This document shows, piece by piece, positions 43,954-59,193 of a DNA stretch of 64,000 nt (position 1 is its first letter; each line of letters begins with the position of its first letter). Source of the stretch: an uncultured bacterium (GTDB lineage Bacteria > Zixibacteria > MSB-5A5 > GN15 > FEB-12); assembly GCA_965372795.1 (NCBI GenBank), contig CBDVDR010000006.1, positions 32,001 to 96,000 of the forward strand. Direction: 5' to 3'. Both the position numbers and the translations under genes were made by a program. The notes under the pieces were generated by a model. That model searched no databases. It was not told the origin of the DNA and saw only the letters and a program-made list of their open reading frames with translations.

Positions 43954-44026
43954 GCCACCGTAGCTCAGTTGGTAGAGCAACTGATTCGTAATCAGTAGGT
44001 CAGCGGTTCGACTCCGCTCGGTGGCT
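43954..44026 (+). tRNA. tRNA-Thr(CGT), intact copy; CCA not encoded
   Basis: Acceptor stem GCCACCG/CGGTGGC, D arm GCTC...GAGC, anticodon stem ACTGA/TCAGT with CGT at 43987-43989, T loop GGTTCGACTCC. Confidence 0.97.
43957..44026 (+). repeat. attL: 70-bp direct repeat
   Basis: Identical to 59124-59193. Confidence 0.95.
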
Positions 44027-44045
44027 CTTATGTGATTGTCTCTCC

Positions 44046-45023
44046 TTGACATACGCTCCTCATATCTCGCGATACATTAACTTGAATTGCCCAAATGGGC
44101 TCCTGACTGTGAGGAAATTATGTCTAGTGAGAGTTGAACAGACTGAATGGTCACCCTTACTCTATTCTATTAAGGTTGATTGCCAACAAAGGAACCTCTC
44201 CCCTAAAACTATAAGCGTGTATTTCGAGAGGATATGGTATTTAGCTGATTACATGAACCAAAGCAGTTTGACTGTACAAGATGTTAACAAGCAAATTATC
44301 CAACAGTACATCCTGTCCATCAAGGACACTGTATCCAGTGAAACTGTCAATGGAAGAATCAGAGCCTTCCGCAGGTTCTTTAACTACCTAGTCGAGGAGA
44401 ACCTATGGGACAAAGCCAGCCCAATGATTGGGATTAGACTACTCAAAACAGCAAAGAGCATTAAAAAGATCATCAACCAGGAAGAGATACAACTCATACT
44501 CAATGGCTTGGATAGGAACAGATTTGAAGGCGCTCGAAATATTCTTATGGTCCTTCTCTTCTGGGATGGGATGATCAGAAAGAGTGAGCTGTTGAATCTC
44601 AAGATTGAAGACTTAGACTTCAACTCAAGACTTATCAAAGTATTTGGTAAGGGTCGTAAAGAGAGAATGGTCCCTATCGGTCTAAAAACATTGAAGACTA
44701 TACATAACTTCTTAAGCAAATGGAGGAGCAAGTACTCGGGAGATTATCTCTTCTGCATGAGCGATGGCCAACCGATCAAAGACAGGCATTACCATAAGAT
44801 CATTCAACGGATCGGACAGAGACATGACATCAAGCTTCATCCACACTTGATCCGACATTCGGCTGCCACCTTCTATATCCAACAGGGTGGTAACCCGGCG
44901 ATCCTACAACAGATCTTAGGACATACAAGTTTATCAGTGACCCAGAAGTATTTACATCTATCGAATAAGGACATGGTAAATAGCTATAATTCATTCAGTC
45001 CATCGAATGCAATTAGAATTTAG
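44046..45023 (+). CDS. Tyrosine recombinase/integrase (XerC/D-like length)
   Basis: Catalytic set present: R (IRKSEL), K (GKGRKER), HxxR (HLIRH), H (LGH), Y (QKYLH). True start uncertain (GTG 44109 or 44127 plausible). Confidence 0.93.
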   Translation: MTYAPHISRYINLNCPNGLLTVRKLCLVRVEQTEWSPLLYSIKVDCQQRNLSPKTISVYFERIWYLADYMNQSSLTVQDVNKQIIQQYILSIKDTVSSETVNGRIRAFRRFFNYLVEENLWDKASPMIGIRLLKTAKSIKKIINQEEIQLILNGLDRNRFEGARNILMVLLFWDGMIRKSELLNLKIEDLDFNSRLIKVFGKGRKERMVPIGLKTLKTIHNFLSKWRSKYSGDYLFCMSDGQPIKDRHYHKIIQRIGQRHDIKLHPHLIRHSAATFYIQQGGNPAILQQILGHTSLSVTQKYLHLSNKDMVNSYNSFSPSNAIRI

Positions 45024-45385
45024 AATTGTCATGTATGAAAGAGTAGTTTTAATTTGATGTACTAACTCGTAAACTCAGTTTTTCAGGTGTTATGTGATCG
45101 AAGCAACACTTCTGTAAGCTTATAGTGACCATGTGATTTCACGTTTAAGGTTGTTGAGTTTTGGCTTCAGTAGGTTGTGACCTATTTGAGTTACCCCTAC
45201 ACGTTTTTCGACTCATTATTGAGATACTTGCTGTATTCGTAGAGAATAGCAGGAATTGCTGCATCTATAGCTTCATCAATTCAACTATCATTAGCTGGAT
45301 AACTTGATTCTAACAAAACGCATGGAGGCTGGTAATTCAATATAATGGCTAAAGAAAAAAAGAAGAACAACGAACGATTATTAAA

Positions 45386-45583
45386 ATGAGTTCTACACGC
45401 GACAAAGCGATTAAACTCTTTACCTACCTGAAAGAGTTATCGAAGCTCCGAACAACGCCAACTAAGGATGTTGCAAAGTATTATGAGATTCTTTGGTTTT
45501 CGGATATTCCAGAGGAAAATGATTGTCATTGTATAGCATGGGATTTGTGGACCCAGTCAGAAGAAGAAAAGGACAGAACGACG
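45386..45583 (+). pseudogene. 5' fragment of a larger gene; resembles the N-terminus of large AAA/SF1-helicase-type island proteins
   Basis: MSSTRDKAIKLFTYLKELSKLRTTP...YEILWFSDIP reads as a natural protein start, then runs directly into the antisense of the carboxypeptidase 3' end. Family assignment is from memory only. Confidence 0.5.
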
Positions 45584-57087: not shown

Positions 57088-57830
57088 AGGATTACCTCAT
57101 CCTTAAATAGTATTACCGTTTCTTATAAATACGCTGTTCTTCAAAGATGCACAAAAATCCAAATCCACGTCCACGGTATTTATCATTGAACCCCCTTCCT
57201 CGCAAAGTTGTATGATGATTTGATACTGGTTTTATAGAATACTATGTACAAGGATACTTAAAACCCTTCTATCGTCATGGTGCAGCTTGATTTACAATGT
57301 TTATTGAAGATGAGATATTCCGCGGCACTCAGCTGATTAACACGTCTATCGATGAAGTAATCTAGTTCACATTAATAAACAACTGATAAATCCCGCTTTA
57401 CTTCCACCTTACTGACAACAAACAATGCCAGTTTGTTTAGATGCACTAACGGTTGTTTTTAACACTTGTGATGGCAGCATTTATTGAAATTGAGGTCTCA
57501 CAGATAGTAATTCAACTGGTCGGAAGCGCATAACAATCATACTTAATTAAATATGAAGACGCGACTCACGGTCCGATCGTCATTAAGCTGCTGTCATTTC
57601 TTATACCAACTTTATAACTACATTATATCTATATTGCATCTTGTATCCACGTATCCTGTATCTATACAATACTACATGCGATCCCATATGTCAAACGGAA
57701 AAATGCATAAATAGTAGAATGTGACGAGGATTTTGAGAGTGAACTTCCCCCCTTTCGGTTCTGTTTGAGAGTCAGTTTGTTGGTTCAAAAAGAAAGTAGT
57801 GATGAGTCGAAAATAGTGGTTTGAGAATAA

Positions 57831-58691
57831 ACGAAGCGATACACTAAGCTTCAGGCATTCGCATCAAGATTATTTACAGTTGTGATGTTAGTCACTGTAA
57901 CAGTCGTATCTGTTGTCAAAAGTCAGGAAACATTTGATCTAATAGAGCGAAAAGAAGTAACACCGGAATTTGCCGCGACTCTCGGAAGTTAAGAAGATAG
58001 ATGCACTTGTGGAAAACGACCCAGCGACTGCTAAGCAGTACTTAAGCGAAGGCGCTGATCCAAACGCGCAATTGGAGAATGGTGATTCTGTGTTGATGGC
58101 AGCGTGTTTACATAGGGGGCAGTTTGATATTGTCAACTCCCTAGTTGCCCATGGTGCAAGCGTTGATCAAATTGCAGATGATGGATTAACTGCCCTGTAT
58201 GTCCCTGCTGATTCGGAAAATTAGGACATCGTAAGGTTGTTATTGGCAAAAGGGGCGGACGTTAATGCCAGCGACGGTGGTAGCTACGGGACGGCGTTAA
58301 CAGCAGCGTCAATAGAGGGCATCGGCCCGTGTTTCTCGAGTTACTATCAAATGGGGCAGATGTCAACGCACGAAGTGTACATGGTTCAGTATTGGGTTTT
58401 GCAGTTGGTTCAAGTGATCGTAAATCTGTAAAGGAGCTTATAGATGCCGGTGCAGATCCAAGGATTGAGACCGTATCATCTGGAATGAGTCGTCGTCCTG
58501 TTTTGCAATTGAAGGCAGCATTGTATCTCCGAAAGGAAGCGGAGAAAGTCTCTGCAGAGAAGATCGCCAGCATTCCAGAGCTAAAACAAGTCCCAGAGTC
58601 TCCTGTAACCATTGAAGAGCTACAGAAGCTGATTGACCTCCTAAATGAGACCAGTGAACGTTTAGATTCACTTGATTCAAGTAAGAACTGA
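57831..58691 (+). pseudogene. Ankyrin-repeat protein pseudogene (probably formerly exported)
   Basis: Ankyrin motifs (GADPNA, DIVRLLLAKGADVNA, NGADVNA, AGADP) split across frames; in-frame TAG at 58222-58224; frameshifts near 57985 and 58320; upstream hydrophobic signal-like stretch lacks a clean start. Confidence 0.85.
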
Positions 58692-59120
58692 CCCAAGCAC
58701 GCTCACGATATTTAGGGATTTCGGAGTCTTAGTGATGACGTTGACTGATAGATCTATTGGTCAAGGTCATCCTATAAAAAGCATCCTCGAGTCTTGGAAT
58801 ATTGAACTTTCGCAAGTAGGGAAAAGTAATTAGTAAAGTGAGTTTGGTCCTGCGAAACCAAATTTTTTAATTTTGTTATCAGGAGTTATGTAATCAAATC
58901 ACTTTTTTTATAAGAAAATAAAATTAGATAGTATCTCTCCCTCAAGCTACAATACTGGGTGGGGTTGTTTCGACGGCGGTCATAGAGGGATGGGGGGGCA
59001 CTCCAATAGGTGCATCTTTTTACTTTACAAAGTCGATTTGAACTGTTATAAAAGACTCATAAAGGGCACCTGACTGCCCCAATAAATAGCGTGACTGACG
59101 AATGTAAGTCATTGTCTTTC

Positions 59121-59193
59121 ACTACCGTAGCTCAGTTGGTAGAGCAACTGATTCGTAATCAGTAGGTCAGCGGTTCGACTCCGCTCGGTGGCT
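59121..59193 (+). pseudogene. Second, 5'-damaged tRNA-Thr(CGT) copy; contains attR (59124-59193)
   Basis: Identical to the first copy from tRNA position 4 to 73, but begins ACT instead of GCC, giving an A1-C72 mismatch and a U3-G70 wobble. Confidence 0.9.

Follow-up and report, generated by a model that had tools for sequence, protein, structure and literature searches.

The question raised by this locus is whether an integrated island carrying three intact genes for dockerin-tagged secreted proteins brought its host something new, or a further version of something its lineage already had. The island, 15.1 kb long, lies in a 64-kb window of the genome of an uncultured sediment bacterium of the Zixibacteria, the phylum also named on its nearest homologues (positions 32001-96000 of contig C6 of G000; coordinates below are window positions unless a contig is named). 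It is bounded by two copies of tRNA-Thr(CGT) sequence. Between them are a tyrosine integrase gene, cargo genes for a GEVED-domain protein, a lysyl-endopeptidase-like protease and an M14 zinc carboxypeptidase, and the remains of broken genes (Table 1). Our preferred reading, to which we give a probability of about 0.68, is that the cassette, of a type usual in the family, is a xenologous copy that arrived on a decayed integrative element, and that it came from a close, higher-GC relative.

Integration at a tRNA-Thr gene

The boundaries of the island are set by a perfect direct repeat of 70 nucleotides (nt), recovered by a repeat search at 100% identity and a spacing of 15167. Each copy falls within a tRNA-Thr(CGT) called by ARAGORN, and these two are the sole Thr(CGT) calls among the genome's 46 tRNAs. 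In the left tRNA copy, which begins GCC, all seven acceptor-stem pairs are of the Watson-Crick type; in the right one, an initial ACT leaves an A-C mismatch and a T-G pair in that stem. As far as sequence can tell, this pattern is what integration into a tRNA gene's 3' part leaves behind, with a new 3' part supplied at the left attachment site (attL) and the old one displaced to the right site (attR). Rfam returned nothing beyond the two tRNAs over 43000-60000.

The integrase gene begins 19 bp past the 3' end of the left tRNA; the public gene call places its start later, giving 298 amino acids (aa). Alignment to XerC/D-like structures locates R178, K202, H267, R270, H293 and Y302, a predicted complete R-K-H-R-H/W-Y set of a tyrosine recombinase. 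The catalytic assignments, including the choice of lysine, follow XerD numbering. Identity with the housekeeping XerC or XerD was rejected, since the protein scores 186.2 bits for XerC (NCBIfam equivalog cut-off 335) and 169.4 bits for XerD (cut-off 330), and is not universal in relatives. Of 40 relatives, 9 have homologues (E <= 1e-40). Six of these homologues were fetched, and four of the six follow the 3' end of a co-oriented tRNA at 108-154 bp, namely tRNA-Thr(CGT) in G005, tRNA-Lys in G012 and tRNA-Arg(TCT) in both G040 and G005. In G040, the 13 kb beside the integrase has 35-44% GC compared with 47-52% beyond the tRNA; among the products of this island are a TraG/TrwB-like coupling protein and two proteins of the Replic_Relax type, and G005 is similar. 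The integrase family marks islands, and the island studied here looks like a stripped descendant of mobilizable elements such as those of G040 and G005.

The counterpart of an uninterrupted site was found in G001, the one further species that the host genus contains. Local GC there is about 35%, and the gene order of the left flank is kept up to and including the tRNA, with eight genes at 56-81% aa identity. A nitroreductase gene, a GNAT gene and an identical tRNA-Thr(CGT) are followed directly by an InhA/MAM-dockerin gene. The match is approximate, as the G001 gene after the tRNA shares only 38% aa identity with its host counterpart past attR, and G001 lacks two genes that the host has. Judged by gene order, the G001 locus amounts to an empty site.

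Apart from integrase and cargo, what remains of the island is broken. Next to the carboxypeptidase gene stands the stub of a helicase-nuclease gene, severed no more than about 8 bp from the M14 stop codon and 88% identical at the nt level over 194 nt (45383-45576) to the start of an open reading frame (ORF) in G029. Pfam matches AAA_11, AAA_12 and MTES_1575 in this ORF of 1633 aa. The conserved segment was also considered as an RNA, a possibility ruled out by Rfam, which gives only tRNAs; it is a gene stub. The ankyrin pseudogene at the other end yields Ank_2/Ank matches in three pieces and two frames. No replication, transfer or phage domain was found in the island, and its 21 small non-cargo ORFs gave 0 Pfam matches. 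Likewise, no relaxase or Replic_Relax, coupling-protein or type IV secretion system domain was found in any island ORF, which places the island outside the integrative and conjugative elements and the integrative mobilizable elements.

In G029, the full-length helicase-nuclease gene (locus L029, contig C20, 10019-14920) is flanked by genes for a DUF932 protein and an AAA_15 ATPase, a neighbourhood that looks like one of the defence or mobile-element type. The 88% nt identity across families suggests that the helicase-nuclease gene itself moves.

Composition of the island

G000 is a 3.35-Mb draft in 69 contigs with 38.0% GC and an estimated completeness of 98.65%, and the island is its most GC-rich stretch. 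GC per kb is 0.464-0.500 across 46001-57000, compared with 0.338-0.374 in 42001-44000 and 0.346-0.405 in 59001-64000. The top three of the genome's 1258 5-kb windows by GC (mean 0.381, sd 0.023) all come from the island. At third codon positions (GC3), the integrase and cargo genes rank 14-35 (Table 1) among the 1428 host ORFs of at least 300 aa, which have a mean GC3 of 0.335 (sd 0.056); the host dockerin genes immediately right of attR have 0.25-0.26. The ankyrin remnant, at 45% GC, shares with the integrase the excess seen in the cargo. High expression was ruled out as the cause: EF-Tu (0.356), genes of rpoB/C size (0.30-0.32) and the ribosomal cluster (0.27-0.39) are not GC3-rich, so the excess is not codon adaptation.

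Elsewhere in the genome, a run of genes at C2:68151-80000 has GC3 values of 0.41-0.57, among the genome's highest, with no adjoining tRNA and no dockerin genes, and may be another foreign region. It was rejected as a second case of the kind described here, as the dockerin genes of C2 have host-like GC3 (0.31-0.33) and no tRNA nearby.

These results bear out the anatomy proposed in a preliminary description of the stretch. It had listed perfect 70-bp repeats, an integrase with a complete catalytic set, three intact giant genes among otherwise broken passengers, a cargo richer in GC than the host dockerin genes, and no visible replication, conjugation or phage genes. The empty tRNA-Thr site that it proposed to seek in relatives is approximated by the G001 locus.

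A family-wide cluster and its nearest homologues

To place the cargo among relatives, 40 genomes were searched at the DNA level and then by protein mapping, and nine cassette loci of 20 kb each were fetched. The GEVED, protease and M14 genes of G004 are colinear with those of the island, at 60, 60 and 51% aa identity. Protease and M14 genes are adjacent in seven of the nine loci (G004, G017, G022, G021, G002, G008 and G003), and in G001 and on contig L076 the GEVED gene is followed by the protease gene. Orthologues of the GEVED protein (query P0127, E <= 1e-100) occur in at least 42 of 108 family genomes, a count that is a floor given the stricter first-pass search used. The relatives' cassette loci have GC like that of the surrounding DNA, with the cluster 2-4 GC points above its flanks in several. 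No tRNA lies within 20 kb at seven of them, and one has an unrelated tRNA-Leu 5.5 kb off. No integrase homologue (E <= 1e-40) was found in cassette-bearing relatives, G001 included, and the GEVED-protease pair of G001 lies on another contig than its tRNA-Thr locus, and its GC3, at 0.28, is native. The cluster of GEVED, protease and M14 genes is chromosomal and family-wide.

The nearest homologues of the island copy come from DNA of higher GC. Contig SWCC01015707.1 (L076), from a metagenome, encodes a GEVED protein with 83% and a protease with 86% aa identity, and matches the island at 78% nt identity over 6181 nt (51133-57276). Its cluster DNA has 54-57% GC and a GC3 of 0.64-0.66. Protein P0127 has 84% identity to the island GEVED protein over 879 aa without gaps, and P0204, at 77% aa identity, is the nearest homologue of the island carboxypeptidase; each lies on a 29,411-bp ENA contig, and that these are one contig is suggested by equal size only. 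The homology to L076 ends 190 nt upstream of the GEVED start and covers the 5' region, so the cassette appears to have moved with its own leader. Within G000, no other GEVED gene or full-length protease was found. A native M14 gene is present on contig C25, with a GC3 of 0.32 and neighbours shared with the G001 M14 gene and with the genes downstream of the G004 cassette.

On our preferred reading, the integrase would have recombined an attP core equal to nt 4-73 of tRNA-Thr(CGT) with the chromosomal gene, rebuilding an intact tRNA at attL beside the integrase gene and leaving a 5'-defective copy at attR. Replic_Relax and TraG/TrwB-type genes, as in related elements, would since have been lost from the backbone, of which the integrase, the helicase-nuclease stub and the dead ankyrin gene remain. 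A cargo block of about 11.7 kb (about 45580-57276) would have been carried with its own upstream region, from a donor in a higher-GC lineage near the host genus represented by L076, P0127 and P0204. The host's own GEVED-protease pair would have been lost or replaced, so that the island copy now supplies its only GEVED protein and only full-length protease, and a second M14 enzyme beside the native one on C25.

The preliminary description had spoken of foreign enzymes acquired horizontally, probably from a relative using the same tag. Horizontal arrival of the island copy is still most likely, given the alien composition within an att- and integrase-bounded block; foreign novelty is refuted, as relatives carry the cluster syntenically on the chromosome, with host-like GC and no integrase or att sites. 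A relative with the same tag is indeed the most likely donor, the nearest homologues at 77-86% aa identity belonging to a lineage of 53-57% GC.

Evidence against transfer and alternative explanations

Several results weigh against the preferred reading. In a protease tree of 14 rows, the island copy is sister to that of G001 with support of 96/93, though the internal branch is only 0.053 long. In a GEVED tree, also of 14 rows, the island copy and P0127 are sister to G001 and P0126 (99/99). Distant protease-like genes of G010, G035 and G038 and a G104 fragment were left out of the trees. This topology is the one expected of vertical descent within the genus, so there is no tree conflict. The cargo has 58-65% aa identity to G001, values also spanned by the syntenic flank genes (56-81%). 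The M14 tree has one starred branch among its ten inner ones and leaves the bootstrap unsettled; an approximately unbiased test against a clade of the island, C25 and G001 M14 genes gave p=0.015, a weak rejection. On L076, the cluster has a tRNA-Ser and a methyltransferase gene upstream and no adjoining integrase. The island GC3 of 0.47 lies midway between 0.65 in L076 and 0.335 in the host, and no donor was identified. A search of the draft G000 for traces of a native cassette since lost found none: an unrelated gene lies downstream of an S8 subtilase paralogue on C18, and the DNA upstream of the G001 GEVED gene is matched in the host weakly and paralogously. No excisionase was seen in the island, and neither junction is bridged in the assembled contigs of three public runs (one study; best word share 0.11). 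The case for transfer rests on composition, the position between att sites and integrase, and the 77-86% homologues in high-GC DNA, and not on tree conflict.

Among the other explanations, an assembly artefact fares best, and we consider it unlikely. The contig would have been threaded through a tRNA of 70-73 bp common to two organisms, or would join an empty site to an excised or episomal circle. The tRNA-Thr(CGT) body, 100% identical in G001, G025 and G028 and 99% identical in G021, would offer a point of collapse in a draft of 69 contigs, and the composition of the island is that of another organism. The unbridged junctions would fit as well; no attP or attB form was present in those public-run contigs either, which otherwise held tRNA pile-ups from many organisms. 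However, the defective 5' end of the right copy fits attR and not the tRNA of a second organism, the integrase stands 19 bp from a tRNA in a layout shared by four of six homologues elsewhere, and a chimera needs two switches placed exactly at both repeat copies. In run X1, labelled marine sediment and possibly the source sample, three short 100%-identical pieces had similar, low depths (2.8 for flank, 2.7 and 2.5 for island), at most a weak hint that flank and island travel together. Even the episome version would describe an element whose attP matches the host tRNA.

Slightly less likely again are two separate events, in which an element without cargo entered the tRNA-Thr gene and later recombination inserted the cassette from another source, deleting the backbone. 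The cut of the helicase-nuclease gene so close to the M14 stop and the sharp end of L076 homology at 57276 would suit such a history. So would the 88% identity of the stub to G029, which belongs to a different family, given that the nearest kin of the cargo are found elsewhere. Against it, integrase and cargo have nearly equal GC3 (0.46-0.50), which is most simply explained by one donor background rearranged before transfer, and no insertion sequence or repeat was found at the inner junctions.

Least likely of all is a native, vertically inherited cassette with coincidental or later integrase and att sites and a GC excess of other cause: the sister relation to G001 in two trees, the divergence within the flank-gene range and the 2-4 GC points in several relatives agree with it, but the GC3 of 0.46-0.50 stands against 0.28 in the G001 orthologues and 0.335 in the host, integrase and ankyrin remnant have the same excess, highly expressed host genes do not, the att copies enclose the whole block, which is absent at the G001 tRNA-Thr site, its 77-86% homologues sit in 54-57% GC DNA, and a separate native M14 gene exists on C25.

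Cargo proteins

As summarized in Table 1, the three cargo ORFs are uninterrupted and lie on the minus strand. All three proteins have signal-peptide-like N-termini. The protease and M14 genes are separated by a gap of 43 nt, and a palindrome (53012-53034) follows the GEVED gene.

Table 1. Predicted features of the island and cohesin ORFs of the host, with third-position GC where calculated
Feature	Position	Strand	Evidence and remarks	GC3 (rank)
attL (putative), intact tRNA-Thr(CGT)	43954..44027	+	ARAGORN; Rfam 73.5 bits; repeat at 43957-44026	
Xer-like tyrosine integrase, 325 aa, TTG start	44046..45023	+	Phage_integrase 3.4e-37	0.50 (14/1428)
Stub of SF1 helicase + MTES_1575 nuclease gene, 80-codon ORF	45386..45628	+	About 64 codons match N-terminus of 1633-aa ORF in G029	
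M14 zinc carboxypeptidase, carboxypeptidase D/M/N type, 848 aa	45584..48130	-	Peptidase_M14 4.7e-58	0.50 (15/1428)
Lysyl-endopeptidase-like S1 serine protease, 1516 aa	48174..52724	-	Trypsin_2, Reelin_subrepeat-B, Dockerin_1	0.48 (25/1428)
GEVED / choice-of-anchor-J giant secreted protein, 1342 aa	53059..57087	-	GEVED 3e-21; choice_anch_J 32 bits; Dockerin_1 25.3 bits	0.46 (35/1428)
Upstream (5') region travelling with the cassette	57088..57276	-	blastn homology to L076 (51133-57276, 78%) ends there	
Ankyrin-repeat pseudogene	57961..58691	+	In-frame stop 58222-58224; frameshift near 58284-58431	
attR (putative), displaced 70-nt tRNA 3' part (59124-59193) behind non-tRNA ACT	59121..59193	+	Rfam 64.1 bits	
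Cohesin ORFs with type IX secretion system (T9SS) C-terminal domain, outside the island	C31:11823-14516; C20:19773-22082; C4 (779-aa ORF); C5:12907-13656; C6:20052-20792			

In the protease, a propeptide precedes the catalytic domain (about 200-450), Reelin-subrepeat-like domains come next, and a dockerin forms the C-terminus. The enzyme matches Achromobacter protease I (1arb) at 4.4e-49, and both 1arb and 4nsy can be aligned with its TANHC, SDFGLLEL and EPGSSGSPIY stretches, which presumably hold the His-Asp-Ser triad. The carboxypeptidase contains a transthyretin-like domain (CarboxypepD_reg, 382-462), TSP3 repeats and a C-terminal dockerin-like module. Its match to 1h8l is 3.9e-60, with aligned MHGDE, MHGG and EVTLEL stretches, in which we assume the zinc ligands and catalytic Glu to lie. 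The HxxE...H ligand pattern and the following transthyretin-like domain point to the carboxypeptidase D/M/N type. The catalytic domains and active-site stretches are thus conserved relative to 1arb and to the carboxypeptidases 1h8l, 1uwy and 2nsm, whereas the island proteins are 3-5 times longer and add Reelin-subrepeat-like, TSP3 and dockerin modules; their specificity is predicted.

A Lys-specific endopeptidase leaves C-terminal lysines, and carboxypeptidases D/M/N remove C-terminal basic residues. The pair would therefore make functional sense, with the endopeptidase cutting after lysine and the carboxypeptidase trimming the resulting C-terminal basic residues. The GEVED protein has internal repeats and a C-terminal dockerin, and is probably a non-catalytic binding partner. 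The earlier label of a proteolysis cassette accordingly suits the protease and the M14 enzyme; it does not extend to the GEVED protein, in which no peptidase domain was found.

Modules of the protease recur in another enzyme. S8 subtilases with Reelin-subrepeat-like and dockerin modules are encoded in G000 (C18:25085-27835) and in G004 (L009:427-3222), in the latter directly upstream of the GEVED gene. Their middle domains have 42-47% aa identity to the Lys-C-like protease. Domain shuffling seems common among the tagged proteases.

The host cohesin-dockerin system

The tags of the cargo are those of the host. A duplicated D-x-N-x-D-G...ISDLTY-V-Y-F motif is present in all three cargo modules and in 34 host modules, and the 37 dockerin-like matches of G000 have this one motif in common with the cargo. 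The profile scores are weak: hmmscan gave 25.3 bits for the GEVED protein and 21.1 bits for the protease at a cut-off of 22.9, and a genome scan with Dockerin_1 gave 31.1, 27.1 and 20.8 bits for the cargo at the same cut-off, the lowest being the M14 enzyme. The match between cargo and host tags had been noted in the preliminary description and holds at the level of the motif. Its further suggestion, that the genes were kept because they plug into the host system, finds no backing in the tags, which are not evidence of selection because they are inherited with the family cluster.

G000 also has eight cohesin-like matches, three of them over the cut-off and five in ORFs with a T9SS C-terminal domain at their end (Table 1). 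Pfam Cohesin matches the C31 ORF at 7.7e-14 and the C20 ORF at 5.1e-06, both together with Por_Secre_tail. SprA is present, and 41 T9SS sorting-domain matches were found in the genome. These features make it plausible that dockerin-tagged enzymes are displayed at the surface on cohesins anchored by the T9SS. The three cargo proteins would be exported by the Sec pathway, and their dockerin-like modules would attach them to cohesin proteins anchored at the surface by T9SS C-terminal domains. A complex prediction for the C31 cohesin (448-592) with the protease dockerin (1440-1516), run with no controls, gave 0.10 against a mark of 0.34 and counts neither way.

A row of dockerin genes of host composition lies right of attR (59669-62338, 62453-64000 and on to C6:97368), encoding in order a TSP3-rich protein, an InhA-like MAM protein and a further M14 enzyme. 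The island has thus settled next to native genes for tagged surface proteins, and the corresponding place in G001 holds both an InhA/MAM-dockerin gene and one for an M14 enzyme.

Comparison with known systems

Targeting of tRNA genes by a tyrosine integrase defines a textbook class of genomic islands and integrative mobilizable elements, and as a mobile element the island is ordinary. It shares with that class the integrase by the tRNA 3' end, the repeats made from the tRNA 3' part, the atypical composition, the empty site in a relative, and a decayed backbone with cargo kept. It differs in the unusual length of its repeat, which covers 70 of the 73 nt of the tRNA, in a short Xer-like integrase (about 300-325 aa) that is not of the P4 or lambda type, and in having no relaxase, coupling protein or excisionase left. 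In addition, its cargo duplicates or replaces a cluster that the lineage already had and provides no new trait.

The closest comparisons within the integrase family are the elements of G040, from the same order as the host, and G005, from the same family. Their integrases are homologous to that of the island (52% aa) and follow the 3' end of a co-oriented tRNA at 144-148 bp, and the G040 element likewise contrasts in composition with its surroundings. Unlike the island, these elements retain mobilisation genes, target tRNA-Arg(TCT), and carry a restriction enzyme, a serine recombinase and a Fib_succ_major protein. No att repeat of at least 30 nt was found in the 20 kb fetched for them.

Two further loci touch on this family. 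In G012 (L065, contig C18, 9000-13317), an integrase homologue with 54% aa identity and one in-frame stop follows a tRNA-Lys(CTT) and precedes a gene for a 759-aa protein with a T9SS sorting domain; the DNA has 47-50% GC compared with 54-58% around it. This locus may be another island of the family carrying a surface protein. In G021 (L026, contig C14, 9230-15160), a GEVED orthologue lies 1.8 kb from a tRNA-Arg(TCT) that stands beside a tRNA-Pro(TGG). This tRNA pair is the integration site of the integrase homologues in G040 (L066) and G005 (L067), and no integrase is present there in G021.

Dockerins outside cellulosomes were reportedly the subject of work by Peer et al. in 2009. Our search of one literature library found no paper on dockerin systems of Zixibacteria, and combining dockerin with genomic island, integrase and tRNA returned only unrelated papers. 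A comparable system is in print for Cloacimonadota (PMC8542988): that paper describes a cellulosome-like cohesin-dockerin display of peptidases on a T9SS-anchored scaffoldin. The two systems are alike in having signal-peptide peptidases with C-terminal dockerins and cohesin proteins that end in a T9SS domain, and both hosts are uncultured anaerobes of the FCB group. The Cloacimonadota scaffoldin is there a single protein of 3,755 aa with tandem cohesins and carbohydrate-binding modules, whereas G000 encodes several proteins of 300-900 aa with one or two cohesin-like domains each. No mobile element is reported in the available text of PMC8542988.

Implications

On the preferred reading, the island is a clean example of an element moving a lineage-typical extracellular enzyme set between related species within an uncultured phylum, where transfer more often adds a new trait. 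For work on protein degradation in sediments, it draws attention to a system of 37 dockerin-like proteins, T9SS-tailed cohesins and a conserved pair of a Lys-C-like protease and a carboxypeptidase for basic residues. Among the ideas raised in the preliminary description, the mobile exchange of complex subunits would go beyond this single transfer. In its general form, tRNA-targeting elements of Zixibacteria would shuttle promoter-equipped sets of dockerin-tagged enzymes, so that the core of a T9SS-anchored 'proteolysome' is swapped between species and a shared tag makes its subunits interchangeable. We offer this proposal tentatively and think it rather doubtful as it stands. The transfer into G000 alone, if confirmed, would mean that modular, tag-based surface enzyme systems tolerate the exchange of subunits across species, and that gene trees of secreted enzymes can look vertical even though the genes have moved.

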